Source of the DNA: a bacterium
GTDB taxonomy: Bacteria > UBA8248
Assembly (NCBI GenBank): GCA_965204535.1
Contig: CBDBEV010000001.1
Location: 1,184,001 to 1,248,000, forward strand
Direction of reading: 5' to 3'
Length of the DNA: 64,000 nucleotides
Under the pieces are notes generated by a model that was not told the origin of the DNA, did not search any database, and saw nothing but the letters and a program-made list of their open reading frames with translations. A program made the translations under genes and the position numbers. Shown here in pieces: positions 12,588 to 54,904 of this stretch. Each line of letters opens with the position of its first letter. Positions within the stretch are counted from its first letter, which is position 1.

Positions 12588-12677
12588 CGAATACCTCCTC
12601 TTGTGTATGTATGACTGCGCAGATGATTTCTCGTATCGTATTCCATCAATCAATCTTCTCTTCTGACACTTCTTTCT

Positions 12678-26010: not shown

Positions 26011-26074
26011 GCGCGTATGATGGCAAATGGGGCGGAGAGCGTCAAAAGCGCAGAGGCGGGGCGCGCCGCTTTGG

Positions 26075-26962: not shown

Positions 26963-27104
26963 GAAAACCTCATGAAACCATTCGCCGAGGTGCCGGTCGT
27001 TTTATTATGGATTTTTATGCTCCCCCGTTATGCTGGGCAGACCTGTTTCGTCAGATATCTTCTGGATATCGGGTGAAAACAGAAAAATGACCTTCCAATG
27101 CGCG

Positions 27105-27140
27105 ATGGAATTATATGGAATATCCATTAAATAATTCAAT
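27105..27140. promoter_or_regulatory. AT-rich dyad (ATGGA-ATA-TCCAT) in the divergent control region; possible regulator site
   Basis: Palindrome at 27115-27127 between lysR and the CoA-transferase gene. Confidence 0.35.
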
Positions 27141-27275
27141 AGATTCGATTCTTCTTTTCCCCGTTGCGATTCCGGTGTCTTGGGTTTAATCTGTGAATGG
27201 GGACTTCTATTTTTCGACTGCCGATACGAGAGTTTCAGCGTGTTGCGGGCGAGGGGAATCCTTGCCTGCGGCCTG

Positions 27276-28241: not shown

Positions 28242-29004
28242 GGCGAAAGACTTCACGGCGTCGGAGCTTTTGTGCGTCATGAGCGCCCGCGCGCTCGAGG
28301 ACGGCCAGGTGGTATTCGCCGGCGTGGGGATTCCGCTTCTGGCCGCCACGCTGGCCCAGCGTCTCCATGCCCCGGGCGTGACGATTCTCTTCGAGGGCGG
28401 CACTATCGGCCCGCACGTCGTGCCCGGCCAGCTTCCGCCCACCACGAACGAGCAGCGCTGCACGCGCAAGGCGAACATGCTGGTGAGCATCACCGAGGTG
28501 CTGCTCCTGCTTCAGCGCGGCTACGTGGACGTGGGCTTCATGGGAGGTGCCCAGATCGATCAGTACGGCAACCTGAACAGCTCCTTCATCGGGAGCGCGG
28601 ACGACCCGTCCGTGCGGCTGCCCGGCACGGGCGGGGGGAACGACATCTCGAGCCTCACCAGGATGATCGTGGCGATGCCGCAGGAAAAGCGCCGCTTCGT
28701 GGAGAACGTGGATTTCATCACCAGTCCCGGCTACGTCAGGGGCGGAACATCGAGGCGCGATTCGGGCCTGATAGCCGGCGGCATGTACCGCGTGGTCACA
28801 GACTTGGCGATTCTGGGGTTCGACGATGAGACGGGCCGGATGCGCGTCGAGGCCCTGCATCCGGGCGTTACCCCCGAGCAGGCGCAGGAGAACACGGGTT
28901 TCGAGTTGATCATCGATTCCTCCGTTTCGACCACCGAACCGCCCACGGAAGAGGAACTGGCCGCGCTTCGCCATCTGGATCCGGACAAGGTCTACACCGC
29001 ATAA
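28231..29004 (+). CDS. Family I CoA-transferase subunit B (GctB-like)
   Basis: VFAGVGIP, ILFEGG (catalytic Glu position), GGAQIDQYGNLN, RLPGTGGGND, VDFITSPG, VTDLA, ENTGF. Confidence 0.9.
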   Translation: MTIEAKDFTASELLCVMSARALEDGQVVFAGVGIPLLAATLAQRLHAPGVTILFEGGTIGPHVVPGQLPPTTNEQRCTRKANMLVSITEVLLLLQRGYVDVGFMGGAQIDQYGNLNSSFIGSADDPSVRLPGTGGGNDISSLTRMIVAMPQEKRRFVENVDFITSPGYVRGGTSRRDSGLIAGGMYRVVTDLAILGFDDETGRMRVEALHPGVTPEQAQENTGFELIIDSSVSTTEPPTEEELAALRHLDPDKVYTA

Positions 29005-29019
29005 TCACATGGAGTTGTC

Positions 29020-30288
29020 ATGAGCGCCGAGCAAAGAGAAAAAATTCTGGCCCAGGTCGACGCCCACCGCGACGAGATCGTCGCCCTGCTCACCAGACTC
29101 GTCCAGATACCGAGCGTGACGGGCGATGAGGGAGAGATTCAGGGCTACGTCGCGGACTACCTCCGTGAGATGAATCTCGAGGTGGATGTCTGGGAATCGG
29201 ATTGGGAGGAACTCAAAAAACACCCCGAGTACGTGCCCGTCACGAGGGGCTATGAGGGCAGGCCGAACGTGGTCGCCGTGCTCAAGGGCTCGGGCGGAGG
29301 CAGGTCGCTCCTGATGAACGGCCACACCGACACCGTCCCGAACGGCCCGCCCGACGCCTGGGAGCATGGGCCGCTCTCCGCGGACATCGAGGACGGCCGC
29401 CTCTACGGGCGCGGCGCCTCGGACATGAAGAGCGGGGTGGCCGCCATCATCATGGCGGCCAAATGCTTCATGGCGGCGGGCCTCAGGCTCAGGGGCGACG
29501 TGATTCTCGATTTCGTCGTGGATGAGGAGTTGAGCGGTCACGGTACGCTCGACACCATTTTGCGCGGCTACACGGCGGACGCGGGTATTTGCTGCGAGAC
29601 GAGCGGCAACGCCATCCAGCCCGGCTGCATCGGCAGAATCTGGTTCGAGATACTCGTGCGCGGGAAGGCGGCGGGCATCCAGCGGAGGTATCAGGGCGTG
29701 AACGCCATCGACCTGGGCTACAAGATCGTCCAGGCGGTGGCCGATCTCGAGAAAAAACGACTGGAGACGGTGTCCCATCCGCTCTATCCCAGGATCATCG
29801 ACGCAATCCCCTGCATGGTCGGCTCGATGGAGGCCGGGAGCTTCCCGAGCGCCTTCCCGGATACCTGCGTGCTCAAGGGGAGTCTCGCCACCGTGCCCGG
29901 CGAGGATCACGACGCGGCCAAGCAGAGCCTGGTGGATCAGGTGGCGCAGGCAGCACAGGATGATCCCTGGATGAAGGATCAACCGCCTGAGGTGCGTTTC
30001 GTGGGGTATTACGCCGAATCGGCCGCGGTCGACGCCGATCACCCGATCGTCAAGACGGTGGCGAACGCCTACCAGGAAGTATCGGGCAATACCCCCGAGA
30101 TATCCGGGCGCCAGGGAGCGGCCGACACGCGCTTTCTGAACGGTTTCGCCGGCATCCCGACGGTGATCTTCGGCCCCGGTCCCACCACCCAGATGCACGC
30201 GAACAACGAATGGGTGGCCGTGGAAGACGTGATCGACGCGACGAAAACGCTGGCGCTCTCCATCCTGGACTGGTGCGGAGCGGACTAA
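29020..30288 (+). CDS. M20 family ArgE/DapE-type deacylase
   Basis: NGHTDTVP, GRLYGRGASDMKSG, DEE, CCE, FGPG, MHANNE. Confidence 0.92.
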   Translation: MSAEQREKILAQVDAHRDEIVALLTRLVQIPSVTGDEGEIQGYVADYLREMNLEVDVWESDWEELKKHPEYVPVTRGYEGRPNVVAVLKGSGGGRSLLMNGHTDTVPNGPPDAWEHGPLSADIEDGRLYGRGASDMKSGVAAIIMAAKCFMAAGLRLRGDVILDFVVDEELSGHGTLDTILRGYTADAGICCETSGNAIQPGCIGRIWFEILVRGKAAGIQRRYQGVNAIDLGYKIVQAVADLEKKRLETVSHPLYPRIIDAIPCMVGSMEAGSFPSAFPDTCVLKGSLATVPGEDHDAAKQSLVDQVAQAAQDDPWMKDQPPEVRFVGYYAESAAVDADHPIVKTVANAYQEVSGNTPEISGRQGAADTRFLNGFAGIPTVIFGPGPTTQMHANNEWVAVEDVIDATKTLALSILDWCGAD

Positions 30289-30304
30289 TACCGAGGAAAT
30301 CGAC

Positions 30305-31261
30305 ATGTCAGGAAAAGACGTGAAGTACGGAATCGCCATGCGGAATTTCACCGCATATCCCGAACTCCCCGACCCGGAGGCGCTCATCGAATACGGCGTC
30401 GCTATGGAGGAGTTGGGCTTCGAGTCCCTGTGGGTGTGGGACCATATTCTCCTGGGCGTGGAGCCGCACTTTCCCATCATCGAGTCGCTGACGCTCCTGA
30501 CGGCGGTGGCCGCGCGGACGAGCAGAATCAAGCTCGGCACGGGCGTGCTCGTCTTGCCGCTCCGAAATCCGCTCGTGGTGGCGAAACAGCTTTCGAGCAT
30601 CGACCAGATATCGAACGGCCGCCTCATCGTCGGCATGGCTTCTGGCTGGTACAAGCGCGAGTTCGACGCGGTGGGCGTTCCTTTTGAGAAGCGCGGCAAC
30701 ATCATGGACCAGAACATCGAGATCATCACGAGGCTGTGGACCGAGGACATGGTGCGCGCCGAATACGGCCCCTACAACCTCAGAAACTCCGTCATGTTCC
30801 CCAAACCTGTGCAGAGCCCGAGGCCGAGCATCCTCATCGGCGGCTACGTCGATCGCGTGCTCAAGCGCGCCGGCGAGAAGGGCGACGGCTGGCTCACCTA
30901 CTTCTATACCCCCGAGAGTTTCACGAAATCCTGGGAGAAGGTACTTCGCTTCGCGGAAGAAGCCGGACGCGACCCCGCCGCGCTCGAGAGCACGAACCAG
31001 CTTCCGATCATGGTGGGTGACTCGCGTGAGCAGATTGAAGAACCGATGAACGAATGGCTCCACACGGAGTGGGACTACGCCTCCTGGAGCGAGTCCACGG
31101 CCGAGAGCGCCGTTATGGGGAACGTCGATGAGTGCGTGGCGCAGCTCCAGGCCCACATCGACACGGGTGTGGACCGGCTCATTTTTGTTCCCTACAAATA
31201 CGAGATGGAGCAGGTGGAAATCGTGGCGAAAGAAATCATCCCTCGTCTGAGAGCGGGGTAG
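30305..31261 (+). CDS. LLM-class flavin/F420-dependent oxidoreductase
   Basis: GFESLWVWDH, TSRIKLGTGVLVLPLRNP, SNGRL, PKPVQ, GDGW. Confidence 0.92.
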   Translation: MSGKDVKYGIAMRNFTAYPELPDPEALIEYGVAMEELGFESLWVWDHILLGVEPHFPIIESLTLLTAVAARTSRIKLGTGVLVLPLRNPLVVAKQLSSIDQISNGRLIVGMASGWYKREFDAVGVPFEKRGNIMDQNIEIITRLWTEDMVRAEYGPYNLRNSVMFPKPVQSPRPSILIGGYVDRVLKRAGEKGDGWLTYFYTPESFTKSWEKVLRFAEEAGRDPAALESTNQLPIMVGDSREQIEEPMNEWLHTEWDYASWSESTAESAVMGNVDECVAQLQAHIDTGVDRLIFVPYKYEMEQVEIVAKEIIPRLRAG

Positions 31262-31422
31262 GGTGAAGGAGGCGTGTGTTGCCCCTTTGTCATGACGAAT
31301 CGGGCATGGAGGCGGCGCTGCTGGACGTCGTCGAAGGGGACAGGGAGATAATGCTCCAGAAATTCAGAACCTCATGGGAGATCATCGAATGAGGTGTTTC
31401 CCTTCTTTTTAGGGTGTAAGAG

Positions 31423-32478
31423 ATGGGCATTCAAAAAAGAGCCTGGGATTCCTACAGGCGCTATTCGGAAAATATTTTCGACGCCATCGGGGCCACGCCC
31501 CTGGTTCGCCTGAACAAGGTGGCGGCGGACTTAGGCCCCGAGGTCTACGCGAAGCTGGAGTGGTACTCGCCCTCGGGAAGCCTCAAGGATCGCATCTACT
31601 ACAACATGCTCCTGAAGGCGGAGGAGCGCGGCGACCTGAGGGCCGGCATGACGGTGCTCGAATGCTCCACCGGCAACGCAGGCATCGCTTGCGCGTTCGT
31701 ATCCGCGGTGAAGGGTTATTCCTGCATCGTCGTCATGCCCGAGGGCATGAGCGATGAGCGAAAAAAGCTCATGCGCGCCTACGGGGCCGATTTGGTGTTC
31801 ACGCCGGGCGGGGAGAGCGACGTCGACCTGGCGCTCGAGAAACTCGATGAAATCCGCGCGGCATCCCCAGAGAAATTCTGGGTTCCCGCCCAGTTCGACA
31901 ACCTCGACAACAACGAAGCGCACTACCTCACGACGGGGCCCGAGATTTTCGAGCAGCTGGACGGGCGCGTCGACGCCGTCGTGGCGTCGCAGGGAACGGG
32001 CGGCTGGGTGAGCGGGGTGGGGAAATTCCTGCGCGAGGACAACCCGGACGTGAGGCTTTACGCCGTGGAGCCTCAGGAGTGCCCGCTCCTGAGCGAGCGG
32101 GGCTGGGGGCCGCACGGCATCGAGGGTATCGGGGACGGCTTCGTGCCCAGGGCGCTCGACTTGTCGCTGCTCACCGGCATCGTGACGACGACGACGGATG
32201 AGTCGGTCGAGATGGCGCAGCGCCTCGCGCGCGAGGAGGGGATTTTCTGCGGCATCTCCTCGGGCTGCAACGTGGCGGCCGCCGTCAAGCTGGCCCGCAG
32301 GCATCCCGAACTGGCCAACATCGTCACGAACATCAACGACACGGGACAGCGCTATTTCACCACCGCCTTGTGCGGGGAGGAGAAACACGTCGATATCCCA
32401 GAACGCGAGCATCATGTGGACCCATACAGCGAGGCGCAGCTCGATCGGTATTCGAGCGAATGGGAGATCATCACCTGA
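31423..32478 (+). CDS. PLP-dependent cysteine-synthase-family enzyme
   Basis: IGATPLV, KLE..SPSGSLKDR (PLP lysine), STGNAG, QFDN, GTGG, IEGIG, GISSG. Confidence 0.9.
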   Translation: MGIQKRAWDSYRRYSENIFDAIGATPLVRLNKVAADLGPEVYAKLEWYSPSGSLKDRIYYNMLLKAEERGDLRAGMTVLECSTGNAGIACAFVSAVKGYSCIVVMPEGMSDERKKLMRAYGADLVFTPGGESDVDLALEKLDEIRAASPEKFWVPAQFDNLDNNEAHYLTTGPEIFEQLDGRVDAVVASQGTGGWVSGVGKFLREDNPDVRLYAVEPQECPLLSERGWGPHGIEGIGDGFVPRALDLSLLTGIVTTTTDESVEMAQRLAREEGIFCGISSGCNVAAAVKLARRHPELANIVTNINDTGQRYFTTALCGEEKHVDIPEREHHVDPYSEAQLDRYSSEWEIIT

Positions 32479-32509
32479 CGCCGAGCGATAAAACCCGCGG
32501 GTGAGATAC

Positions 32510-33376
32510 ATGGTTTATGGCCAGATTCTGATTAACAGCATTCTCCTGGGGGGTATCTACGCCAGCATTGCGGTCGGTTTCTCGCTCGTCTGGGGCGTGA
32601 TGAACATCCTCAACATCCTGCACGGCACGTTCCTGATGCTGGGCGGCTACGTCACTTTCTGGATGTTCAAACTCTACGGCGTGGACCCGTTTTTATCTCT
32701 CCCGCTCTCCGCCGTCTCCATGTTCTGCGCAGGCTACGCGGTGCAGCGCGGACTGATCAACAAGATCGTGCGCGCGCCCATGTTCATGTCCCTGATTCTC
32801 ACCTTCGGTCTTCAGTTGCTCATCGTGAGGCTGGCGATATATTTCTTCACCGGTGATTTCAGGTCGGTTCAGCCCTCCTATGCGGGTTTTTCTATTTCCT
32901 TCATGGGTCTTTCGGTGCCCTTCGTCCGGATTTCCATATTCGTGCTGGGCGTCGCTCTCACGAGCATTCTTTTCTGGTTCATGGGACGAACGCGCACGGG
33001 CCGGGCCATACGGGCGACGCGGATGGATTTGGACTCCGCCCAGTTGATGGGCGTCGACATCGGTAGAATCTACGCCATCACGTATGGAATCGGCGCGGCC
33101 GCCGCCGCCACGTCGGGTTCTCTGGTGAGCGTGGGTTTCGCCATCTCGCCGGTGAGCGACGTGGAATTCCTCTCGAAATCCTTCATCATCTGCACCATCG
33201 GGGGATTGGGAAACATCACGGGAGCGCTGGCGGGGGGCCTGATTCTGGGCCTCGCCGAGAACTTTGGCGCCCTGTACCTCGGCCCAGGGTTGCAGAACGC
33301 CATCGGCTACGTGCTCTTGATTCTCGTGCTCTTCATCAAGCCGTCGGGCCTGCTGGGCAGAAAGGGTTTCGAATAG
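32510..33376 (+). CDS. Branched-chain amino acid (HAAT) ABC permease, LivH-like
   Basis: GGIYA..AVGFSLVWGVM..LN..HG, TRTGRAIRA, GGLGN, KPSGLLG. Confidence 0.92.
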   Translation: MVYGQILINSILLGGIYASIAVGFSLVWGVMNILNILHGTFLMLGGYVTFWMFKLYGVDPFLSLPLSAVSMFCAGYAVQRGLINKIVRAPMFMSLILTFGLQLLIVRLAIYFFTGDFRSVQPSYAGFSISFMGLSVPFVRISIFVLGVALTSILFWFMGRTRTGRAIRATRMDLDSAQLMGVDIGRIYAITYGIGAAAAATSGSLVSVGFAISPVSDVEFLSKSFIICTIGGLGNITGALAGGLILGLAENFGALYLGPGLQNAIGYVLLILVLFIKPSGLLGRKGFE

Positions 33377-33377
33377 C

Positions 33378-34361
33378 ATGTTCAGACCCTGGTCCCACAT
33401 TCAATGGTTCGGCATGGGGGCAGGCGTTCTCGCCCTGATACTCTTGCCCTCTTTCGTGGAAAACGACGAGATCAGGAAGTGGATGGACATCCTGATGGTG
33501 GCCATCCTGGCGACGAGCTGGAACTTCATCGGCGGCCTGACGGGCTATCCCTCCTTCGCGCCGGCCGCCTTTTTCGGGCTGGGAGCGTACACGACGGCCA
33601 TCCTGATGAACGCAGGGTTCAATTTTTTCATCACGTTGGGTATCGGTGCCTGTCTGGGCGCGCTCGTGGCGCTCGCCCTGGGCGTTCCCATATTGAGGCT
33701 GAGGGGCCACTACTTCGCCATCGCCACATTCGGCGTGGCGGAATTCTTCCGCGAACTGGCGGATAACCTTCGCATCACCGGCGGGGGGGACGGCATCAAT
33801 CTGCCCCAGATTACGGGCGGGCCGGATTACTTCACGCGCTTTTTCTACTTCTCCATGCTCGGGGTGGCTGTGCTCGCCGTCCTGACGCAGTACTTCGTCA
33901 CGCGACACCGCCTGGGCTACGGCCTCGTCGCCATCCGCGAAAACGAGGACGCGGCGGCCATGACGGGCGTGGATACGACGAAATACAAGATCATCGCTTT
34001 TGTTCTCTCATCCATTTTCCCCGCAATGGGCGGCGGCGTATACGCCTACCGCGCCGCGTTCCTGGAGCCCATCGACGTCTTCGACGTCTTGTTCTCCATC
34101 AAGGCGATCGTGATGTCGATGCTCGGCGGGGTGGGTACGGTGATGGGCCCGCTCGTGGGCGCGCTGATGATGGAATACCTGTCGGACTACCTCTGGGGAG
34201 CCTTCACGGAATTCCATAGCGCGTTCCTGGGAATCATCATCGTGCTGGTTGTCTTGTTCCTCCCGCGCGGCCTGATGGCCGTCTCCCAGGAGGTAAAGAG
34301 CCGCGGGTGGGGGTCGTTGGGCGTGATTCTCAAGAGCAACATACAGAGGTTCAAGGTGTGA
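33378..34361 (+). CDS. HAAT ABC permease, LivM-like
   Basis: SWN..GG.TGY, LRLRGHYFAIAT, AIRENEDAA, LGGVGT, PRGL. Confidence 0.92.
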   Translation: MFRPWSHIQWFGMGAGVLALILLPSFVENDEIRKWMDILMVAILATSWNFIGGLTGYPSFAPAAFFGLGAYTTAILMNAGFNFFITLGIGACLGALVALALGVPILRLRGHYFAIATFGVAEFFRELADNLRITGGGDGINLPQITGGPDYFTRFFYFSMLGVAVLAVLTQYFVTRHRLGYGLVAIRENEDAAAMTGVDTTKYKIIAFVLSSIFPAMGGGVYAYRAAFLEPIDVFDVLFSIKAIVMSMLGGVGTVMGPLVGALMMEYLSDYLWGAFTEFHSAFLGIIIVLVVLFLPRGLMAVSQEVKSRGWGSLGVILKSNIQRFKV

Positions 34362-35125
34362 GCGAAACACTTCTGGAAGGCAGAAGCGTCACGAAGCGCT
34401 TCGGCGGACTCACCGCCGTCTCGGCGGTGGATTTCACCGTGCGCAAGGGGGAGATCCTGGGCGTCATCGGTCCCAACGGCGCGGGGAAGACGACGCTCCT
34501 CAATTGCATCACGGGTCTCGACCCGGCGAACGAGGGTGAGATTCTGTTTCGCGGCGAGCGCATCGAAACCATGAAACCCCACGCCATCACACGCAAGGGA
34601 GTCGCACGGACGTTTCAGATCGTCCAGCCTTTCGCGGGTCTCGCAGTGCGCGAGAACGTGGTGATGGGCGCGCTGTTCGCCTCCCGGAAGTCGAGAAAAG
34701 AGGTGAGACGCGCCCAGGAACTCGCCGACGAAATGCTGGCGTTCGTGGGATTGAGCGATAAGTCGGCGCAACTCGCCTCCCAGCTCACGCTCGCCGAGAG
34801 AAAACGCCTGGAATTCGCCAAGTCCCTCGCCACCGAGCCGGAGGTGCTGCTGCTGGACGAGGTGAATGCGGGCTTGAACACGACGGAAATCGAGAACGCC
34901 ATTTCCCTCATCCACAAGGTGAGAGAGCAGGGCGTGACCATCCTGGTGATCGAGCACTTGATGAAGGTGATCACGGACCTCTCGGACCGCGTCATCGTCT
35001 TGCATCACGGGGAGAAGATAGCGGAAGGTTTGCCGCGCGAGGTGACGAGCGATGAGCAGGTCATCAAGGCCTATCTGGGCGAGAAATACGTGGCGATGAT
35101 GAAAAAACTGGACGAGGAGTCCTAG
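34358..35125 (+). CDS. HAAT ABC ATP-binding protein, LivG-like
   Basis: KRFGGL, GPNGAGKTT, ARTFQ, LLLDE, IEH, AYLG; GTG start overlaps the upstream stop. Confidence 0.92.
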   Translation: MSETLLEGRSVTKRFGGLTAVSAVDFTVRKGEILGVIGPNGAGKTTLLNCITGLDPANEGEILFRGERIETMKPHAITRKGVARTFQIVQPFAGLAVRENVVMGALFASRKSRKEVRRAQELADEMLAFVGLSDKSAQLASQLTLAERKRLEFAKSLATEPEVLLLDEVNAGLNTTEIENAISLIHKVREQGVTILVIEHLMKVITDLSDRVIVLHHGEKIAEGLPREVTSDEQVIKAYLGEKYVAMMKKLDEES

Positions 35126-35127
35126 AA

Positions 35128-35868
35128 GTGGCGACGGGTGGTTCTCAAGGCGGAGCGAGCCTCCTGGAGGTAAGCGGCCTGGCGGGCGGGTATGACGACG
35201 TTCAGGTTCTGTGGGGTATCGATCTGCGCGTGAACGAAGGCGAGATCGTCGCCATCGTCGGCAGCAACGGTGTCGGCAAGTCCACGTTCCTGCGGATGCT
35301 CTCGGGGGTGCTGCCGCATCGAGCGGGCGAAATTATGCTCGGAGGCGAATCACTGGAAGGAATGGCGCCGGAGGGCATCGTCGCCAAGGGGATTTCCCAC
35401 GTGCCCGAGGGCCGCAGGCTCTTCGCCGCGATGAGCGTGGAGGAGAATCTCTTGATGGGCGCTTATGCCCGGAAGATGGCCGATCAGGAACTGGCGGCGG
35501 ATTTGGAGAGGGTGTACGGGTTTTTCCCGCGACTGGCGGAGCGGAAATCCCAGCTTGCGGGGAGCATGTCCGGCGGCGAGCAGCAGATGTGCGCGATTGC
35601 CCGGGGGCTGATGGCGCGTCCGAGGCTGCTTTTGATCGATGAGCTTTCCCTGGGCCTTGCGCCCAGGCTGGTGGAGGAGTTGTGCGGATTCGTCCGGCAG
35701 ATAAACGAGGAGGGCGTCGCCATCATCCTGGTCGAGCAGGACGTGCTGACCGCGTTCGAACTCGCGAGCCGGGCGTATGTATTCGAGACGGGGCGCGTGA
35801 CGATCTCCGGCACGTCGGATGAACTGCTGGCGAATCCCCAGGTGAAAAAAGCGTATCTGGGAATGTAG
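35128..35868 (+). CDS. HAAT ABC ATP-binding protein, LivF-like
   Basis: GSNGVGKST, VPEGRRLF, MSGGEQQM, DELSLGLAP, VEQ, AYLG. Confidence 0.93.
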   Translation: MATGGSQGGASLLEVSGLAGGYDDVQVLWGIDLRVNEGEIVAIVGSNGVGKSTFLRMLSGVLPHRAGEIMLGGESLEGMAPEGIVAKGISHVPEGRRLFAAMSVEENLLMGAYARKMADQELAADLERVYGFFPRLAERKSQLAGSMSGGEQQMCAIARGLMARPRLLLIDELSLGLAPRLVEELCGFVRQINEEGVAIILVEQDVLTAFELASRAYVFETGRVTISGTSDELLANPQVKKAYLGM

Positions 35869-35965
35869 CGTGTTTTCATATACTCTGTCTGAAACCAACA
35901 TTTACGAGAGTCGTGTGAAAATCGAGAACGGAAGAGGCAGCACTCAACCATTGAGGAGGGAGGTC

Positions 35966-37174
35966 ATGAGAAGGCGGAATTTGTTGTTTCTCATCGCAGC
36001 AGTCTTGTTTGTCACTTTCGGCGTGACGGGCCTGCAGGGTCTGGACGGCGCCCAGGCGGCGGAGATTAAATTCGGCGCCGCCTTGCCGCTCACGGGTCCG
36101 CTCGCCACCGAGGGGAAAAAGCAGCAGGCGGGTTATGAAATCTGGCGCGAGCGCGTGAACAAGGCGGGCGGCATCAACGTAGGCGGCAAGAAGATGAAGG
36201 TGAAGATCGTCTACTACGACTACGAGAGCAAGACGCCGACGGCCACCAAGCTCGCCGAGCGGCTGATCACCAAGGAAAAGGTGGACCTCCTTCTGGGTCC
36301 GTTCGGAAGCGGAGCGACGAAATCCGTCGCCGCGATCACGGAGCGCTATCAGGTTCCCCTCATCGCGCCCGTGGCGAGTTCCGAGCCGATTTTCGACCAG
36401 GGCTACAAATACCTCTTCGGCCTCCTGGCGCCGAATTCGTATTTGCCGCAGAACTTCCTGACGCTCTTGAAAGAGCAAAAGCCGATGCCGAAGACCATCG
36501 CGTTCGTGACGCGCAACGACTTTTTCCCGCGCGCCATTACGAAGACGATCAGGTCGGCGGCAAAAAAGCAGGGTTTCACGGACGTCTACTACGCCGAGTT
36601 CCCCAAGGATTCGAAGGACATGTCCACCTGGCTCACGATCGTGAAGGGCAAGAATCCCGACGTGCTCATGGTGGCCGGCTATCTTCCCGACACCCTCCTC
36701 GCCACCAAGCAGGCGAACGAGCTGGGGGTGAAGCCCAAAATCCTGTTCACCATGGTGGGTCCGGTCTACGCGCAGTTCACGGAATCGCTCAAAGGCACGG
36801 CCAACAACATCCTGACCGCCGCATGGTGGGGTGAGGCGCTCGATTACAAGGGCGACTTCATCGGCTCGGCGCGGGACTTCGGGAAAATCTGGCGCGCCAA
36901 GTTCAAACAGGAGCCGGACTACGTCGCCGCGGCGTCGACGACTGCGGGCATCGTCGCCCAGAAGGCAATCGAGGCGGCGGGCACGCTGGACAAGAAAAAG
37001 GTTCGCGACGCCATTGCGAAAACCGACTTGAAAACTTTCTTCGGCCCCGTGAAATTCGACAAGCTCAACATGAACGCGGCCAGCGCCATCGTTTTGTTCC
37101 AGGTGCAGGACGGAAAACGCAAGACGGTGGGGCCGAAGAGCGTGGCGAACGCGAAGTTCAGGTATCCGAGATAG
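35966..37174 (+). CDS. HAAT ABC substrate-binding protein
   Basis: Signal peptide, PLTG, VNKAGGI, LLGPFGSG, TFFGPVKFD; GGAGG SD before ATG 35966. Confidence 0.92.
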   Translation: MRRRNLLFLIAAVLFVTFGVTGLQGLDGAQAAEIKFGAALPLTGPLATEGKKQQAGYEIWRERVNKAGGINVGGKKMKVKIVYYDYESKTPTATKLAERLITKEKVDLLLGPFGSGATKSVAAITERYQVPLIAPVASSEPIFDQGYKYLFGLLAPNSYLPQNFLTLLKEQKPMPKTIAFVTRNDFFPRAITKTIRSAAKKQGFTDVYYAEFPKDSKDMSTWLTIVKGKNPDVLMVAGYLPDTLLATKQANELGVKPKILFTMVGPVYAQFTESLKGTANNILTAAWWGEALDYKGDFIGSARDFGKIWRAKFKQEPDYVAAASTTAGIVAQKAIEAAGTLDKKKVRDAIAKTDLKTFFGPVKFDKLNMNAASAIVLFQVQDGKRKTVGPKSVANAKFRYPR

Positions 37175-37245
37175 TTTTCCGGCCGGGTTCGGGGACACCG
37201 CCGAGGGTGACGCGGTGTTCCTGAGCCTGGCAATTTGAGGGTTTC

Positions 37246-38043
37246 ATGCCGACGATCCGCCAGTTGGCCGACGATGAGGTGCCTGAGGCGGCGCGCGATC
37301 TCGTTGAACGCGTCAAGACGCGCGAGAAGCGCGTATTCGGGGTCGACTCGCTCTCGAACATCTGGCGCTCCATGACGCATCACCCCGAATACATGAAGGC
37401 GAGTTGGGAGCGCTCGCGCGCCACGATGCAGCGCGGGGACGTGCCGCCTCTGGTCAAGGAGATGGTCGCCTCGGCGGTTTCCATCGTCAACGCGTGTGAC
37501 TACTGAATCGATTCCCACATCGCCGCGGTCATGCGGCTGGGGGTCGATGAGGTGGGCATCACGGAATTGATCGGATTGACCGATCACGTTTCGGGGATGA
37601 ACAAGGTCGCTTTCGGGCTTTTGCTGGAAGATGAGGATGCGCCGCCTCTTCTGCCTGATGCGGAAGATGAGGAGGTCGACCCTGTCGTCCGGGAACTGAT
37701 GAGTGAGGTGGCGGAGGTGGAATCGGCGCGCCTGGGTAGAGACGGCGTTCCGCGCTATTGGCGCTGTCTGGCGCGGAACCGGCATTATTTCGAATCGACG
37801 TGGAACAAGCACAAGCTCATGCTCGATGGAGGCGTTCTCGAAAAGCAGGCCAAGGCGGCCGTGGGTTTCGGCGTCAGCGCCACGAACGGGTCGGGGTATT
37901 TCATACGGTATTTTCATTCTTGTCTGGTGAATCTGGGCTGGGACCCGGGGCGAATCCTCGAAATTCTCGGGGTGGTGGACCACTACAACAGCTTCAACGC
38001 CCTGGCGACGGGGATGCAGATTGAATCCGACATCAGGCCATGA
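37246..38043 (+). CDS. AhpD/carboxymuconolactone-decarboxylase-like selenoprotein (265 aa, CxxU, Sec at codon 87)
   Basis: ORFs 37246..37506 and 37531..38043 are in frame; read-through gives KEMVASAVSIVNA-CDY-U-IDSH, the AhpD CxxC..H motif with Sec at the second Cys. Confidence 0.88.
37507..37541 (+). promoter_or_regulatory. Bacterial SECIS-like hairpin
   Basis: CCCA-(CATC bulge)-GCCGC-GGTCAT-GCGGC-TGGG; the loop starts with GG, 20 nt after the UGA. Confidence 0.75.
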
Positions 38044-38113
38044 TTCGTGGAAAGATTGAGGGGAGCGCCGAATGACCAAGTTGCTCGGCCGAATGGCGTT
38101 TTAAGGACAGGAT

Positions 38114-38968
38114 ATGGAATTTTTACGCGCTCAATCGGTGGATGAGGCATTGGCGGCTGCGCGGGATGGCGCCGCCTTCGTGGCGGGCGGCACGAACCTC
38201 GTGCCGGACGTGCTCTTCGGGCGCAAGAAGATAGCGCGCGCGGTGGACATCAGCCGTCTGGATGAGCTTCGCTTCATCGAGGAGGCGGACGGAAAAATCA
38301 GAATCGGCGCACTGGCGACGGTGACGGATTTGCTCGATTCCGGGTTGATACGCGATACCGCCTCGCCTTTGTACGAGAGCGCTCTCGAATTCGCGGGCCC
38401 CTTGGTGAGAAACCGCGCGAGTGTGGCGGGCAATCTCATGGACGCCTCGCCCGCCGCCGATTTGGCCCCGCCCCTGCTGGCGCAGGATGCCGTCGTCGAA
38501 TTGGCCTCGGCGGCGGGGGAACGCGTTCTTCCGCTTTCGGAATTCTTTCTGGACTACCGGAAAACGGCCGCACGGCCGGAAGAACTCGTGACGGCCATCG
38601 TCATCGATCCGCTGGGGACGGCGGATCGTTGCGCGTACTACAAACTCCAGCTCAGGCGCGCGATGGCCATCGCCGTCGTGGGCGTGGCGGTCGTTCTCCG
38701 GATGGAAGACAGCGTTTGCGCGGAGGCCGCCATCGGCATGGGGGCGGTGGCCGCGGTGCCGTATCGAGCGCGCGCCGCCGAGGCGCATCTTCAGGCTAAG
38801 GAAATCGGGGAGGCGGAAATCGAGGCGGCCGCAGCCGCCGCAGCGGATGGTGCGCAACCGATTGACGACGTGCGGGCGAGTGCTGCGTACCGCAGGAAAA
38901 TGTGCGGCGTGCTGGTCCGGCGCCTGCTGAAAAAAGCGCTGGGAATGCCGCAAAGCGTAGCGGTGTGA
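38114..38968 (+). CDS. Xanthine-dehydrogenase-family FAD subunit (CoxM-like)
   Basis: AGGTNL, IGAL.T, VRNRASVAGN, ASPAAD, PIDDVRASAAYR. Confidence 0.92.
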   Translation: MEFLRAQSVDEALAAARDGAAFVAGGTNLVPDVLFGRKKIARAVDISRLDELRFIEEADGKIRIGALATVTDLLDSGLIRDTASPLYESALEFAGPLVRNRASVAGNLMDASPAADLAPPLLAQDAVVELASAAGERVLPLSEFFLDYRKTAARPEELVTAIVIDPLGTADRCAYYKLQLRRAMAIAVVGVAVVLRMEDSVCAEAAIGMGAVAAVPYRARAAEAHLQAKEIGEAEIEAAAAAAADGAQPIDDVRASAAYRRKMCGVLVRRLLKKALGMPQSVAV

Positions 38969-39000
38969 TGAAAATTCGGCATTTTGATTGAGAGAAGACG

Positions 39001-39483
39001 ATGAGTGCATACGAAGTCAAACTGCGCGTGAACGGAAATGACGAAACCCTCGCCGTGCGGGGGGAGGAGACGCTCCTGCGCGCGCTGAGACGCATTGGCT
39101 ACGTCGAGGTGAAGCTCAGCTGCGAGGGCGGCGATTGCGGCGCGTGCGCCGTTTTGCTCGACGGCGTGGCGGTGAACGCCTGCCTCGTGTTCGCCGCGCA
39201 GGCGGACGGCGCCGAGATCACCACCGTGCGCGGGGTCGGAACGGAAGGCGACCTCCACCCGGTCCAGGAGCAGCTCATCGAAAAAGGCGGCGTGCAGTGC
39301 GGGTTCTGCACGCCGGGAATCGTCGTATCGGCGAAGGCGCTCCTGGATGAGAACGCTGCGCCCACGCGCGAAGATATACAACGCGGCCTCGCCGGAAATC
39401 TTTGCCGGTGCACGGGCTACAAGAAGATTTTCGAGGCGGTATCGGCCGCCGCCGCTCAGATGAAAGAGGGAGGCGGCTCATGA
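39001..39483 (+). CDS. Xanthine-dehydrogenase-family [2Fe-2S] subunit (CoxS-like)
   Basis: CEGGDCGAC...C, QCGFC, GNLCRCTGY. Confidence 0.95.
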   Translation: MSAYEVKLRVNGNDETLAVRGEETLLRALRRIGYVEVKLSCEGGDCGACAVLLDGVAVNACLVFAAQADGAEITTVRGVGTEGDLHPVQEQLIEKGGVQCGFCTPGIVVSAKALLDENAAPTREDIQRGLAGNLCRCTGYKKIFEAVSAAAAQMKEGGGS

Positions 39484-41750
39484 GCGAGCGCGTCGTCGGC
39501 CAGCCCCATCCCATCATCGACGCGGCCGAGAAAGTCTCGGGCGCCACGATTTTCATCGACGATCTGGCGCTTCCGGGCGCGCTCACGGGGGTGGCGCTGC
39601 GCAGCCCCCATCCCCATGCCAGGATATTGCACGTCGACACGTCGGCCGCGGAGCGCCTGCCGGGCGTCGCTGTCGTCCTGTCCAAAAACAACACGCCGGA
39701 CGCCCCGTTCGGCATCAATCACAAGGATGAAGCCGCGTTTTGCCGCGAGAAGGCGCGCTACGTGGGAGACGAAGTCGCCGCCGTGGCTGCCGTGGACGAG
39801 GAGACCGCCCGCGAGGCGCTCTCGCTCATCCGCGTGGAATACGAGGTATTGCCCACGGTTGGAGACCCTTTCGCGGCGCTGGAACCGGATGCGCCTCTCG
39901 TCCACGATGCCGTCGCCGGCAACATCGCCAACGAGTTTCACATCAGGCGCGGCGCGATAGACGAGGCGTTCGATGAGGCGGATGCGGCGTTCGCGGATGA
40001 ATTTCACACCCATCTCACCCACCAGGCCTATATCGAACCCACCGGTTGCGCGGCGCAGTGGCATCCGGGCGGAAAAATCTCCGTCTGGGGATGCCTGCAG
40101 TCGGTGTTCCTGATCCGCACCTTCATGCTGGCGCCCGTCATGGGCATGTCCGCCGATGATTTCCGCGTGACGCAGACCAAGCCGGGCGGCGCCTTCGGCG
40201 GCAAGCTCGACGTGAAGGCGGCTCTCATGGCGGCGATGCTGAGCCGGGCGGCGGAGAAGCCGGTCAAATTCATGATGAGCCTCGAAGAAGACCTGATCGC
40301 CATGCGCCCGAGGATGCCGGTGCACATCTCGCTCGAATCGGCCTGGAAGAGCGACGGTGCGCTCGCGGGCAAGCGCGTCCGGATCGTGGCGGAAAACGGC
40401 GCCTACAGCTCGCTCTCGCCCGCCATCATGAGTTCCATCGCGCTGCGCACGGACAATCTGTATAAAACGCCCGCCGCCGAGATTCAGGGAAAACTCGTCT
40501 ACACGAACATCATCCCCTCGGGCCAGATGCGCGGGTTCGGCAACGTGCAGGCGACCTACGCCTGGGAGAGCCACCTCGACAACGTGGCAGGCGGCCTGGG
40601 GCTGGACCCGGCCGAACTTCGCCTCAGGAACTACACCGAAAAAGGCGACGTCTCGCTCCACGGCTGGAAGATAGCCAGTTGCGCCGTGGCCGACGCCACC
40701 CGCTACGTGGTGGAGAAGATGGACTGGAAGGCCAAGCGCGCCCGGGGCGGCAAGGGCCGCGGAATAGGTCTTGCGAGCTGCATCCACGTTTCGGGGAATA
40801 AAGGGTTTTCCGTGGAGCTCGGCCCCGACGGCACCGACCCCTCGAGCGGCGTGGTCCGCGTGGATGAGGCGGGCGAGGTCGAGATATGGTCGGGCGAGTC
40901 GGACCTGGGCCAGGGGGCCACGAGCGTCATGGCCTACATCGCCTCTGAAGTCATGGGTATCCCCGTGGAGCAATTCAAGGTCCCGCCCACCGATACGGGC
41001 TACATGCCCTTCGGCATGGGGGCGTTCGCGAGCCGCATCACCCTGATCGGCGGAAACGCCGTCAAGCTCGCCGCCGAGGACGCCCGCAGGAACCTCCTGG
41101 ATGCCGCGGCGGAGGCCATGGAAATCCCGGCGGATGAGCTCGAAATTGTCGAGGGCGAAGTCCGCGCGAAGGCCCTGCCGGAGCGGAAGATGGCGGTGGG
41201 CGAGGTCGTGGGGCGCGCCGGCGGCGTGGTCGAGGGCGCGGGCAAGTGGCTGGCCGGGGGCGACGTGCTCGATAAAGAAAAATACGGGAATCCCTCGACC
41301 ACGTATTCCTTCAGCACGCACGGCGCAGAAGTTGAGGTGGACATGGAGATGGGCGTCGTCACCGTCTTGCAAGTCTGCTGTGGCCACGACCCGGGCCGGG
41401 TCATCAACAGGCTGGGCGCCGAGGGCCAGGTCGAGGGCGGCGTCGTCCAGGGCATGAGCTACGCGATGATGGAAGGGCTCGCGCCGCTGGAGGGCCACCT
41501 GCGCGGAAAAAATTTCCACGACTACCTCATCGCCACCTCGATGGACGCCCCGCCGATTGAGCACGATTTCTTCGAGTCCATGGACCCCTACGGCCCCTAC
41601 GGCGCGAAGGGGCTGGCCGAGGTGGCGATCAACCCGATCACGGCGGCGATCTGCAACGCCGTCTACCACGCGACGGGCGGCGCGCGGATACGCACCCTGC
41701 CCGTCACCCCCGAGCGCGTGCTCGAGGCGATCGAGGAAGCAAGGATTTGA
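39480..41750 (+). CDS. Xanthine-dehydrogenase-family molybdopterin-binding subunit
   Basis: RSPHPHARI, QAYIEP, GGAFGGK, MRGFG, DLGQG, GQVEGG, YGAKGLAE; ATG overlaps the upstream stop. Confidence 0.93.
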   Translation: MSERVVGQPHPIIDAAEKVSGATIFIDDLALPGALTGVALRSPHPHARILHVDTSAAERLPGVAVVLSKNNTPDAPFGINHKDEAAFCREKARYVGDEVAAVAAVDEETAREALSLIRVEYEVLPTVGDPFAALEPDAPLVHDAVAGNIANEFHIRRGAIDEAFDEADAAFADEFHTHLTHQAYIEPTGCAAQWHPGGKISVWGCLQSVFLIRTFMLAPVMGMSADDFRVTQTKPGGAFGGKLDVKAALMAAMLSRAAEKPVKFMMSLEEDLIAMRPRMPVHISLESAWKSDGALAGKRVRIVAENGAYSSLSPAIMSSIALRTDNLYKTPAAEIQGKLVYTNIIPSGQMRGFGNVQATYAWESHLDNVAGGLGLDPAELRLRNYTEKGDVSLHGWKIASCAVADATRYVVEKMDWKAKRARGGKGRGIGLASCIHVSGNKGFSVELGPDGTDPSSGVVRVDEAGEVEIWSGESDLGQGATSVMAYIASEVMGIPVEQFKVPPTDTGYMPFGMGAFASRITLIGGNAVKLAAEDARRNLLDAAAEAMEIPADELEIVEGEVRAKALPERKMAVGEVVGRAGGVVEGAGKWLAGGDVLDKEKYGNPSTTYSFSTHGAEVEVDMEMGVVTVLQVCCGHDPGRVINRLGAEGQVEGGVVQGMSYAMMEGLAPLEGHLRGKNFHDYLIATSMDAPPIEHDFFESMDPYGPYGAKGLAEVAINPITAAICNAVYHATGGARIRTLPVTPERVLEAIEEARI

Positions 41751-41799
41751 ATGGCCGCGGGAATAATCGGTAATTCCCCCTGAAACCCCGGACGGACTC

Positions 41800-43428
41800 A
41801 TGGAAAACCTCTCCTGCGACGTTTTGATTCTCGGCGGCGGACCCGCCGCCATGACGGCCACCATCGCCGCGATGGAGAGCGGCGCGGACGCGCTCCTGGT
41901 CTGCAAGCAGTCCCCCGGCAGTTCGGGCAACATCGTCATGGCGCGGGCGGGGCATTCGGCCAATTTCGCGCCCGATGACAGCGCGGCCCTGTTCCTCGCG
42001 GACACCCTCGAAGGCGGCGATTATCTCAACCACCCCGATGTCGCAGACGCCATGTGTGCGGATTCCGCCGCGCGGATTCGCGACCTGTATGAGTGGGGCA
42101 TCCCCTTCATCACGCGCGGGGACGGCGCTTTCGACTTGCACCCCCAGGGTGGCCACAGGCGCGACCGCGGCCTTTACCCGGTCAGGAACTGGGGCGTGGA
42201 GGTGGCGCGGCCGCTGCGCAAAAAGCTCGACGCCGACGGCGCGCGCATTCTCGAACACGTCATGGCGGTCGATCTGCTCGTGGCGGACGGCGTCTGCCGG
42301 GGCGTTGTCGGCTTCCACACCAGAAGCGGCCGGATTTACGCGGTACACGCCGCAGCCACCATACTGGCCACCGGCGGGGCGGGCCAGATTTTTTCGGAGA
42401 ACACGAACGCGGGCGGCATCACGGGCGACGCCTTCGGCATGGCGCTGAGAGCCGGCCTCGCCCTCTCGGACATGGAGTTCGTCCAGTTCTACCCGGCCGT
42501 CATCAAGCGGCCCGAGAGCAACATGGTCGTGGCGCCCACGCTGTTCCCCTTAGGCGCGCGCTTTTTGAACCGCGACGGCGCCGACATCATGCGCGACGTG
42601 CCCGGCGGCGGCGGCGCCACGCGCGACTTGATGGCGCGGGCGGTCTATCTCGAACTCATGGGGGGCGGCGGGGTGGACGGCGCCGTGCAGATGGATTTAT
42701 CCGGCATCCCGATGGCCGATCTGGAGCACTTCGCCCCCGATAATCTCAAGCTCTTCGCGAGGCGGGGCGTCTCGCCCCACGGGGGCGACATCTACGTCAC
42801 GCCCAAGGCCCACTTCTTCATGGGCGGCGTGCCGATAGACGGGCAGGGCGCGACGGCGATGGCCGGCCTCTACGCGGCGGGGGAGGCGAGTGCCGGCGCG
42901 CACGGGGCGAACCGCCTCTCGAACAACGCCTTCACCGAAGCCCACACGCTGGGCTGGCGCGCGGCGAAGGCGGCCGCCGATTATGCGCGCGGCGCGGCGG
43001 GGGCGGCGGATACTGCGCTCGCGCGGCGTCATGCGGATGCCCTGGCGGCGCGGGCGGGAAGGCCGGGCCGCGCGGTGGAGCTCGTCCGCGAGATCAAGCG
43101 CGTCTGCTGGGAGAACGCCGGCATCGTGCGCGAGGGCGGCCTGCTCGAAGAGGCGAGGACCGAACTCGCCGGCGTCGGGCGCGGCCTGGCCGACTGCGGG
43201 GGGAGCGAGCCCGCCCGGCTCGTGGAGGCGGTGGAAGCCGAGAACATGTGCCTGAGCGCACAGGCGGTGGTGGAGGCCGCCCTCATGCGGACGGAGAGCC
43301 GGGGCGCGCACTACCGGACGGATTATCCCGAAGCGGACGATGCGCGCTGGCGGGTGAACGTTTTCGTGAAAAAAGAGGATGACGGCTTTTTCGTTTTTTC
43401 CCGTCCCGCAGGCGCTATTTCGGCATAA
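41800..43428 (+). CDS. FAD_binding_2 flavoprotein (SdhA/FrdA/NadB superfamily)
   Basis: LGGGPAA, GGH, LATGG, DMEFVQFYP, HFFMGG, YAAGE, HGANRL, RTESRGAHYRTDYP. Confidence 0.88.
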   Translation: MENLSCDVLILGGGPAAMTATIAAMESGADALLVCKQSPGSSGNIVMARAGHSANFAPDDSAALFLADTLEGGDYLNHPDVADAMCADSAARIRDLYEWGIPFITRGDGAFDLHPQGGHRRDRGLYPVRNWGVEVARPLRKKLDADGARILEHVMAVDLLVADGVCRGVVGFHTRSGRIYAVHAAATILATGGAGQIFSENTNAGGITGDAFGMALRAGLALSDMEFVQFYPAVIKRPESNMVVAPTLFPLGARFLNRDGADIMRDVPGGGGATRDLMARAVYLELMGGGGVDGAVQMDLSGIPMADLEHFAPDNLKLFARRGVSPHGGDIYVTPKAHFFMGGVPIDGQGATAMAGLYAAGEASAGAHGANRLSNNAFTEAHTLGWRAAKAAADYARGAAGAADTALARRHADALAARAGRPGRAVELVREIKRVCWENAGIVREGGLLEEARTELAGVGRGLADCGGSEPARLVEAVEAENMCLSAQAVVEAALMRTESRGAHYRTDYPEADDARWRVNVFVKKEDDGFFVFSRPAGAISA

Positions 43429-45422: not shown

Positions 45423-47087
45423 CTACTGCTTGTTCACGCCGAAGGCGCCGACCATTCGGCCGCTCGTGCTGTACGTCGAGTGGAAAGTCCCGGTCCCGAC
45501 CTTCGGAACGCCACTAGTGCTGTCGTTGTCATAGAGAGCTCCGGACCACTGGCCGGCGGCGGCCGCGGCCGTCCCGTCGATGGTCCACTTCGTCATCTTT
45601 TCGTCAGTACCCGCGGTACCGGCACCATCGTCACCAAGAATTATCCCGGTATCACCAATGCCCTGCTTCATCAACTCGACGGACCAGTTCCGCGCCTCAC
45701 CGTCCGCCCCCATGAAGTTGTCGATGGTGCCCGTGATCATGTTGGCGTTGAAATCGGCTTCGAGCGTCGCCCGCGCGGTGAAGTGGCCGGCGTCGTTCGT
45801 TCCCCCGGTGGAGCTGTAAAGCGCGTACTTGCCCGCGGCGCCGCCCATGTAGGTCGCCGTCCCCCGCAGGTTCGTGATGCCGCTGGCGGCCGGGACGGTG
45901 CCCCTGGCCGTCGCGAAAGCGCTCGCGGTGAAGGTGTTGCCGTCCTCGGACTTGTGGATCCACCAGCCGTAGGAGGCATACACCGTGTCCGACGTGCTCA
46001 TGACCTTGGCGTTCGGGTCGGCGGGCTTGAAGGTCCAGGTGCCGCCGCCAAGCGTGAAGCCGTCTGCGGCCACCGTAGCCGAGCAAGCGTTGGTGTCGGT
46101 GGTGGGCGTACAACTGTAGGTGCCGGACACCCCGTGGTAGCTGCCGGAGATCATCTTGGCGACTTCGTTCGCGCCCTTCTTGAACACCTTCGTCCCGGCG
46201 GGCTGGTCGAAGCTCGGACTGTCGACTCTCCCCGCGACCGCTGCGTCTGACGTGTCGATGGCTAACGCCCCGTCCGTCAACTGATACTCGAAATCGCCGT
46301 CGGTTGTAACCGCTGCGGCGCTGCCGAACTTCTTCCCCTCCGTCGGGGCGCCGACGTTCGAGTAGACCATCGCCTCGTACATGCCGTCGTCGTCGGGCTC
46401 GGCCGTGTGCCTCTTGCCCGCCCAGCCGTGGTTGGCGGCGACCGGCGTCTTCTTGTCTTCCGCCAGTGCGACGGCGGTGGCCGTGCCGATCGTCACGCTG
46501 ATGACGCCGTCGGCGTCACTTGCGCCGGTTCGGATGTTGTCGGTATTGCCAAGGCCGTGCTCGAGGCCCTTGTACAGTTTACTGGCCGTCGCCATCATGG
46601 CCTTGTCGTCGGCCGTCTGCTTGGCGGCGATCGCCGCCATGCGGCTGGTCTTGGCGGAAGCAAGCTGACCCTCGAGCGTGGCGAGCGTTCCCTCGGCGGA
46701 GGCAACGTCGGTATCGCCTTCGGGAAGGTTTACCGCACCGTCGATCGCCGCCTTCAGATCGGCAACCGCGTCGTCGGCCGCCTTCACCTCAGCGTCGGTG
46801 GCGTCGTCGTCCACCATGCCCACCGCAGTCCGGGCCGCCGTCACGGCTTCCATGATCGCCGTGCGCTGCGCCGCTTGCAGTTCTGCAGCCGTGGTGCATG
46901 AGTTGTTGTCCGCATTCCACTGGCCGCCATCCGCCACGCACATCTCCTGCGGGGTCGGCATCGGCGTGTCATCCGGCGGCGTCGTCGCAGTGCCGCCACC
47001 GCCGCCGCAACCGGCCAGCGCAATGGCGAAGACCGCCGCCAGCGCGAAAGCGTAAAGCTTGTTTATCGGTTTCTCTCTGAACATCAT
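45423..47087 (-). CDS. Surface lipoprotein with a C-terminal TbpB-like (Slam-substrate-type) beta-barrel domain
   Basis: Lipobox LAGC-GGGGG, Ala-rich helical stalk, GTATYMGGAAGKY, LEADF..ITGTIDNF, GQWSG, final MVGAFGV; AGGAGG SD. Confidence 0.8.
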   Translation of the reverse strand: MMFREKPINKLYAFALAAVFAIALAGCGGGGGTATTPPDDTPMPTPQEMCVADGGQWNADNNSCTTAAELQAAQRTAIMEAVTAARTAVGMVDDDATDAEVKAADDAVADLKAAIDGAVNLPEGDTDVASAEGTLATLEGQLASAKTSRMAAIAAKQTADDKAMMATASKLYKGLEHGLGNTDNIRTGASDADGVISVTIGTATAVALAEDKKTPVAANHGWAGKRHTAEPDDDGMYEAMVYSNVGAPTEGKKFGSAAAVTTDGDFEYQLTDGALAIDTSDAAVAGRVDSPSFDQPAGTKVFKKGANEVAKMISGSYHGVSGTYSCTPTTDTNACSATVAADGFTLGGGTWTFKPADPNAKVMSTSDTVYASYGWWIHKSEDGNTFTASAFATARGTVPAASGITNLRGTATYMGGAAGKYALYSSTGGTNDAGHFTARATLEADFNANMITGTIDNFMGADGEARNWSVELMKQGIGDTGIILGDDGAGTAGTDEKMTKWTIDGTAAAAAGQWSGALYDNDSTSGVPKVGTGTFHSTYSTSGRMVGAFGVNKQ

Positions 47088-54783: not shown

Positions 54784-54904
54784 GGGGGGTTCTCCGGGTG
54801 GGTGGTTATACGGCAAAGAGATTCGGTGGTTGCGTTTTTCTGAGCCTACCACGGCGGGGGTTGTCGATCATGGGGGGCCGCCCCTGCAATCTTTATTTGG
54901 GCGC

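Follow-up and report, generated by a model that had tools for sequence, protein, structure and literature searches.

A two-repeat AhpD-like protein, predicted to carry selenocysteine, is gained and lost with a neighbouring ABC transporter

Background

Between the genes for a liv-type ABC transporter and a molybdoenzyme of the xanthine-oxidase family, on the forward strand of a 64,000-nucleotide stretch of bacterial DNA (hereafter the window), lies a reading frame that is interrupted once by TGA. Does this triplet encode selenocysteine (Sec), and, if so, what might the resulting protein do beside such neighbours? Predictions of AhpD-like selenoproteins date back to 2005, and the role given for them is a presumed redox one. 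CxxU AhpD-like or CMD-like selenoproteins are listed from the Sargasso Sea (PMC1088965), as 'AhpD-like 1/2' in GOS (PMC2398784) and in a review (PMC13188914), and the first-pass annotation was right to regard the family as a known one.

A reading frame that continues across a conserved TGA

The gene (37246-38043, forward strand), with a Shine-Dalgarno-like GAGGG immediately 5' of its ATG, comprises 86 codons, the TGA at 37504-37506, 178 further open codons and a terminal TGA stop; with the internal TGA read through it encodes 265 aa. Translation with TGA as Sec places U87 in the context VNACDY-U-IDSHIAAVMRL, at the second Cys position of the AhpD CxxC motif, which agrees with the position and the open frame beyond it that had been noted initially. 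A public contig covers the stretch with 0 differences and may be the same DNA's own source.

The expectation that standard annotation would divide the gene was also borne out, since ORF calling under translation table 11 yields pieces of 86 and 170 aa. The protein database holds the family in a similar state: each of the 120 listed matches (of 294) falls short of full length, and most measure 170-180 aa and begin after the TGA. This is also what might be seen if the TGA were a genuine stop, separating two translationally coupled small genes or marking a pseudogene or an assembly error, and the same reading can draw on an ATG situated 24 nt after the TGA and on close relatives without any Cys version.

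To set against this we have 107 fetched loci with 42-97% identity, 105 of which cover the TGA site. The metagenome loci were picked by C-terminal peptide patterns, independently of the TGA region, and 80 of 106 were kept, two of these not covering the site and some loci being near-duplicates. TGA occupies the U87 column in 27/27 genome loci and in 78/78 covering metagenome loci, never replaced by TAA or TAG, and none of these 105, down to 42% identity, has a Cys version. The phylum itself gives the same picture, with a TGA inside every one of 40 matches from 31 genomes, and on the combination of 105/105 loci and 40/40 phylum matches we reject a sequencing error or a pseudogene. More distant full-length two-repeat homologues with 22-32% identity, including P0132, P0139 and P0153, show CxxC at the U87 column in repeat 1 and lack it in repeat 2. 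They thereby supply the Cys/TGA pair by which the proposal could be checked and, where consistently split homologues would have spoken against it, the precedent of a single chain. Two distant proteins among the listed matches are labelled Rokuibacteriota and Methylomirabilota by their sources.

The downstream ATG itself fits poorly with a second start. The eight codons that separate it from the TGA are conserved as protein and include the catalytic H91, and in two members the corresponding residue (M96) gives way, to Lys in one (L067) and to Leu in the other (L030). Taken with the exclusive use of TGA, the full-length Cys homologues, the frozen stem codons described below and the Sec machinery (selA) that 49 of 51 phylum genomes possess, these observations make a genuine stop highly improbable. 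On this comparative evidence the in-frame TGA is almost certainly read as Sec, and the gene product is predicted to be one 265-aa selenoprotein, as originally proposed.

Some relatives look damaged: alignments are split in L028, L107 and L110, and a further TGA in L034 falls at a column without Cys and, with no conserved hairpin by eye, is unsupported as a second Sec. Among 301 genomes of the phylum to which the Acidimicrobiaceae locus L033 belongs, the full gene was recovered in that genome alone, along with two single-repeat matches. As the tree is a quick version in which the Cys outgroups sit on long branches, we left it unrooted and claim no direction for the Sec/Cys exchange. As a separate observation, P0189 and P0249, from other tandem AhpD subfamilies, stop at a C-x-Y in repeat 2, as if Sec were located there, and a TGA-containing paralogue with 27% identity occurs in another family (L150, L153 and L154 of f4).

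A SECIS-like hairpin under codon constraint

A bulged stem is predicted at 37507-37548, immediately downstream of the TGA (forward strand), with an apical stem-loop at 37522-37537. As claimed from the first inspection, a GG (37527-37528) begins 20 nt past the TGA. The fold of 37507-37566 reaches -27.5 kcal/mol (z -2.31; 5/200 shuffles equally good), and the energy of the apical 26 nt alone is within chance (z -1.32; 23/200 shuffles). Since the hairpin energy is just modestly beyond that of the shuffles, the case for a SECIS rests on synonymous constraint.

We examined this constraint in a codon alignment of 59 rows, consisting of the window and 58 loci with mutual identity <92% drawn from 87 with complete frames. 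Residues 88-95, which follow the TGA, are the best conserved segment (mean 0.96), and their codons vary silently. The exceptions to silent variation are two codons that form the apical stem, GCC (A93) and CGG (R97), each found in 59/59 rows; for the 46 other conserved four- or six-fold degenerate columns the share of the top codon has a median of 0.57 and a maximum of 0.79. The four apical stem pairs are intact in 38/38 DNA rows and the loop G25-U26 (37528-37529) is invariant. Columns 24 and 27 switch together, being G-C in 16 of these rows and C-G in 22, a switch that may be one evolutionary event. Thus, the fold and the row conservation reveal a downstream hairpin with G(U) in its apical loop. 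In the prokaryotic SECIS as described in PMC8659212, the loop bases that matter most are G23/U24; here the GU stands instead at 25-26, counted from the U of UGA.

Sec machinery and other selenoprotein genes of the genome

In the genome, whose completeness is 95.7%, selA, selB and selD were each recovered above cut-off, along with a tRNA-Sec (selC), so all four genes for which the first-pass annotation suggested a search are present; selD carries an in-frame TGA of its own. In BSepDB (PMC13326102), three genomes labelled Nitrospinota/Nitrospinaceae and placed in UBA8248, the lineage to which the genome of the window probably belongs, are among the ten most selenoprotein-rich bacteria, with 48-54 genes. 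At least 11 of the 23 CMD matches in our genome are TGA-containing genes, each such TGA having a Cys three residues upstream, and some of the others also adjoin transporters. With so many CMD genes, some of them thus placed, a transporter neighbourhood of such genes is common in this genome, which counts against reading much into the one described here.

At least 11 further CxxU CMD/AhpD genes of this genome (G000) lie at L125-L133, L136, L137 and C2:299935. In six or more of them a C-x-x-U-x-x-H-N motif is accompanied by a hairpin whose loop is of the GGUC type, and L127, the one examined, is closer than the ahpD gene to PA0269 (E 2e-18) and Bmp8 (E 2e-9). The window also holds a second hidden selenoprotein of the UGSC family (12042-12590, reverse strand; NF041046, 147 bits against a cut-off of 125), with its TGA at 12284-12282 in the context AVGD-U-GSCSSC; by a rough scan, the genome has some six more genes of the D/G/V-U-G(S/G)C type. 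The ORF immediately upstream of the UGSC gene (12678-13718, reverse strand) is related to that at 53758-54852 (reverse strand), the two having a W-T/S-D-G-L-P-V-V-P/T-P-T motif and no NCBIfam match. Elsewhere the window contains a 554-aa lipoprotein-like ORF rich in Ala, Thr and Gly (45423-47087, reverse strand; no Pfam or NCBIfam match), transposase-like ORFs at 20412-21851, 48042-49487 and 50305-53542, two of which are near-identical at their N-termini, and palindromic GC-rich repeats in intergenic stretches.

Two repeats and one predicted active site

The protein is made up of two repeats, encoded by 37246-37635 and 37636-38040 (forward strand), which align gap-free with 26% identity over 129 aa (E 3e-19). 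PF02627 (CMD) matches residues 47-122, spanning the TGA, with 57.9 bits against a cut-off of 23, and TIGR00778 scores 41.1 bits against 27.8. Repeat 1 carries the AhpD relay, namely E72 (37459), C84 (37495), Y86, U87 and H91 (37516), each of which is present in 59/59 rows; in the predicted model they are found in a helical hairpin formed by helices 68-81 and 85-97. According to PMC3141380, the Mycobacterium tuberculosis AhpD relay consists of Glu118, Cys130, His132, Cys133 and His137, and PA0269 has Tyr at the His132 position; Y86 sits at this very position, with Tyr as in PA0269.

Repeat 2 has lost the Glu and lacks a Cys or Sec nucleophile: M, F, L or W occupies position 219, a Cys at position 216 is confined to 12/59 rows, and the equivalent segment in the window (VSATNGSGYFIRYFH) is without Cys, as first stated. 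The earlier description of one redox-active and one degenerate domain holds insofar as repeat 2 is devoid of a nucleophile, but its last helix (37945-38013) ranks with the best conserved stretches of the whole chain, with D245, Y247 and N251 invariant, whereas the repeat-1 equivalent N119 is seen in 21/59 rows. Three proteins with a single site (6K40, 3C1L and 2OYO) match the profile first as far as position ~100 and then again over 195-260. From these HMM alignments we infer that the protein is probably a pseudo-dimer, in which one active site would be assembled from two helices, that of the CxxU motif in repeat 1 and the final one in repeat 2. The predicted model is a single all-helical chain (pLDDT 95.5, pTM 0.93) with 2Q0T, 2PRR and 2OUW as its best fold matches.

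Like the known CxxU AhpD selenoproteins, the family combines PF02627/TIGR00778 and CxxU with an in-frame UGA, a downstream G-loop hairpin and Cys homologues; it differs from them in its two ~130-aa repeats with one active site and in the absence of a Cys version among its close relatives. The window protein and three relatives fall below the cut-offs of TIGR01926, NF041238, NF041047, NF041537 and NF053654, and against seleno-AhpD cut-offs the window protein scores 38.7 (cut-off 81.8) and 22.8 (cut-off 175). The subfamily may already be listed in BSepDB or in the supplements of PMC1088965, PMC2398784 and PMC13188914.

Among solved proteins, 2OUW from Rhodospirillum rubrum (E 1e-25, target TM 0.81), 6K40 (the D. 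radiodurans AhpD) and M. tuberculosis AhpD share the sequence or fold of the repeat and the succession of Glu, Cys, Tyr or His, Cys and His; our protein departs from them in having a predicted Sec at the Cys133 equivalent, two fused repeats and an operon without an AhpC gene. The best whole-chain fold match, the 263-aa tandem CMD protein 2Q0T of Burkholderia (E 3.7e-6, TM 0.66), is of the same length class, but it is just 17% identical, functionally uncharacterised and, as deposited, not a selenoprotein. Weak HMM similarity (E 1e-5 to 1e-12) extends to Sestrin-2 and to the group I haloacid dehalogenases DehI/HadD, which are built of internal repeats of a related helical unit, with one active half in Sestrin. 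Across the whole chain, though, these differ from our protein: TM is 0.21-0.22 with an rmsd of about 22 A for DehI/HadD and 0.26 for Sestrin-2, and PF04636 (PA26) is absent at E 0.001.

Operon context and inheritance with the transporter

The gene is embedded in a core operon region (24682-43428) that is conserved across most of the phylum. A divergent LysR regulator and a UbiD decarboxylase are encoded at 24682-26962 (reverse strand); the best solved relative of the latter is 6H6V, identified in PMC8988006 as HmfF, from a family described there as acting on furan dicarboxylate. On the forward strand follow two CoA-transferase subunits, an M20 deacylase-like protein, an LLM oxidoreductase and a CysK-like PLP enzyme (27282-32478), then, at 32501-37174, livH, livM, livG, livF and the binding protein (35966-37174), whose best solved match (E 2e-27) is uninformative as to its ligand. 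Downstream of ahpD, 38114-43428 encodes the FAD, FeS and Mo subunits of the molybdoenzyme (xdhBCA) and, after these, an L-aspartate-oxidase/SdhA-like (NadB-like) flavoprotein; the closest solved relative of the Mo subunit is 4-hydroxybenzoyl-CoA reductase. In most relatives the CysK-like gene is present as a tandem pair (at 31261-31423; ~58% identical), and the genome of the window and a few others have one.

In relatives, contigs from RNA libraries cross both junctions of ahpD, that with the binding protein and that with the start of xdhB; they come from one study, may stem from DNA, and are silent on level, strand and a single transcript. A promoter and terminator scan gave counts near chance, with no terminator-like site on the forward strand among the binding protein, ahpD and xdhB.

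The first-pass annotation had taken the place of the gene between transporter and molybdoenzyme as a sign of a role in their pathway. Across 51 genomes of the phylum, 31 have ahpD, 29 have an orthologue of the binding protein and 40 have one of xdhA; the presence of ahpD agrees with that of the binding protein in 49/51 genomes and with xdhA in 40/51. The binding protein occurs without ahpD in 0/51 genomes, and the two with ahpD and no binding-protein match are G007, with a binding protein split in two, and G046, where ahpD lies beside another Mo subunit. In 10/51 genomes the xdhA orthologue, a cysK-like gene and selA are retained, and both ahpD and the binding protein are absent. All six of these ten that were fetched lack the whole liv+ahpD block from an otherwise intact operon in which cysK abuts the xdh genes, and one (L139) retains a 31-codon livH remnant at the deleted block. 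We accordingly reject both an obligate partnership with the molybdoenzyme, as these ten genomes keep the xdhA operon alone, and loss of the gene through loss of the Sec machinery, as all ten have selA. The suggested pathway link thus stands for the transporter and fails for the molybdoenzyme: ahpD belongs to the transporter block as an accessory and is dispensable to the molybdoenzyme. The 49/51 agreement does not amount to 49 independent events, because the genomes are kin, and block deletion of adjacent genes can give the same pattern of co-loss.

The arrangement recurs in a second family of the phylum, where a paralogue with 40% identity is located directly after the orthologue of the binding protein (L145, L147, L149 and L152); a 55-57% identical copy there comes after a different Mo subunit. 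Farther afield, liv-type genes are seen in 13/68 loci of the set L047-L114 (67 distant loci and the close L053) and in L033, and, as a point against the transporter link, other members have unrelated neighbours, be they housekeeping genes, selenoprotein clusters, a MetE-like gene or a molybdoenzyme subunit of a different kind.

Possible roles of the protein

Because gain and loss of ahpD go hand in hand with those of the neighbouring transporter, its product likely reduces what the transporter imports; we put at about even chances that it is a single-site reductase of the imported solute or of a product made from it. SelB would bind the GU-tipped hairpin and insert Sec. By analogy with M. tuberculosis AhpD (PMC3141380), the U87 selenolate would then attack an oxidised sulfur (S-S, S-OH or S=O) or a peroxide bond, C84 would resolve the adduct to a selenenylsulfide, and a cellular thiol reductant would recycle it. 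Repeat 2 would take the place of the partner subunit in a homodimer of the 2OUW type, with its conserved last helix completing the single active site. Judging from context, the core operon would degrade some compound by means of the CoA transferase, molybdoenzyme, HmfF-like UbiD, deacylase and CysK-like enzyme, and the substrate of the selenoprotein may be this compound when oxidised or S-linked; our guess for the compound is a sulfur-containing heteroaromatic acid.

Alternatively, the selenoprotein might be a general antioxidant of the AhpD type, whether a peroxidase or a reductase of peroxiredoxin or protein thiols, that rides a well-expressed operon. The complete relay, as defined in PMC3141380, and the AhpD-core proteins 2OUW and 6K40 as the closest solved sequences speak for this, as do the highly varied neighbourhoods and the clustering of some distant loci with genes for Prx-like (UxxC) and OsmC-like selenoproteins. 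However, the operon has no peroxiredoxin gene, the 40%-identical paralogue of another family lies beside the same transporter orthologue, and many other CMD genes of the genome could serve general defence. We hence regard this alternative as possible but rather doubtful, and a pathway role, as first suggested in preference to peroxide defence, is plausible.

Another reading is that of a selenium-dependent reductive dehalogenase, in which U87 would strip halogen from an imported haloaromatic or haloheteroaromatic, much as Sec does in thyroid deiodinases and the CMD-fold enzyme Bmp8 does with bromopyrrole, and pass the product to the core operon. Relatives of our gene occur in sponge metagenomes, and sponges are rich in organohalogens. 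In 19 of the 68 loci L047-L114 there is a homologue of iodotyrosine deiodinase (IYD; E 1e-75 to 5KO7) or a type II haloacid dehalogenase (HAD; TIGR01428 above cut-off), often directly upstream of the tandem AhpD gene. L063 (4063-7519) shows the order HAD (type II), Prx (Sec, UxxC), OsmC (Sec), IYD and tandem AhpD gene, hence three TGA-Sec genes with two of dehalogenase families; its OsmC-like protein belongs to NF041052. Prx-like or OsmC-like genes occur in 13/68 loci, with in-frame TGAs in the L063 copies. Bmp8, a CMD homologue that removes Br (PMC7918430), shares the CMD/AhpD fold (6OHI/6OHJ; 6OHJ match E 1.4e-3, TM 0.54).

Against this, the dehalogenase-family neighbours fall in two nested subclades of the quick tree, far from the clade of the window, and hence represent about two events. 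They are found in 0/39 of the closer loci L008-L046, a close IYD is missing from the genome (best 29%), and selenoprotein clustering alone could explain L063. The family profile finds Bmp8, a 195-aa single-site protein, at E 0.84, and the group I haloacid dehalogenases have an HMM match without a fold match (TM 0.22). A literature search, largely of open-access papers, found no bacterial CxxU selenoprotein dehalogenase. We therefore consider dehalogenation by U87 unlikely. Equally speculative is its broader form, in which the Sec-only tandem AhpD subfamily would be an AhpD-fold counterpart of thyroid deiodinase, a plug-in that joins an ABC importer and strips host organohalogens ahead of a heteroaromatic catabolic pathway. 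Were it true, it would be new selenoenzyme chemistry in bacteria.

Conclusions

The whole subfamily is stored in public sets as two fragments, without a curated model. The protein described here is of a known kind of selenoprotein, to which its linkage with a transporter is a useful addition: as an AhpD-like selenoprotein that travels with one specific transporter, it makes the ligand of the binding protein a direct route to its substrate.
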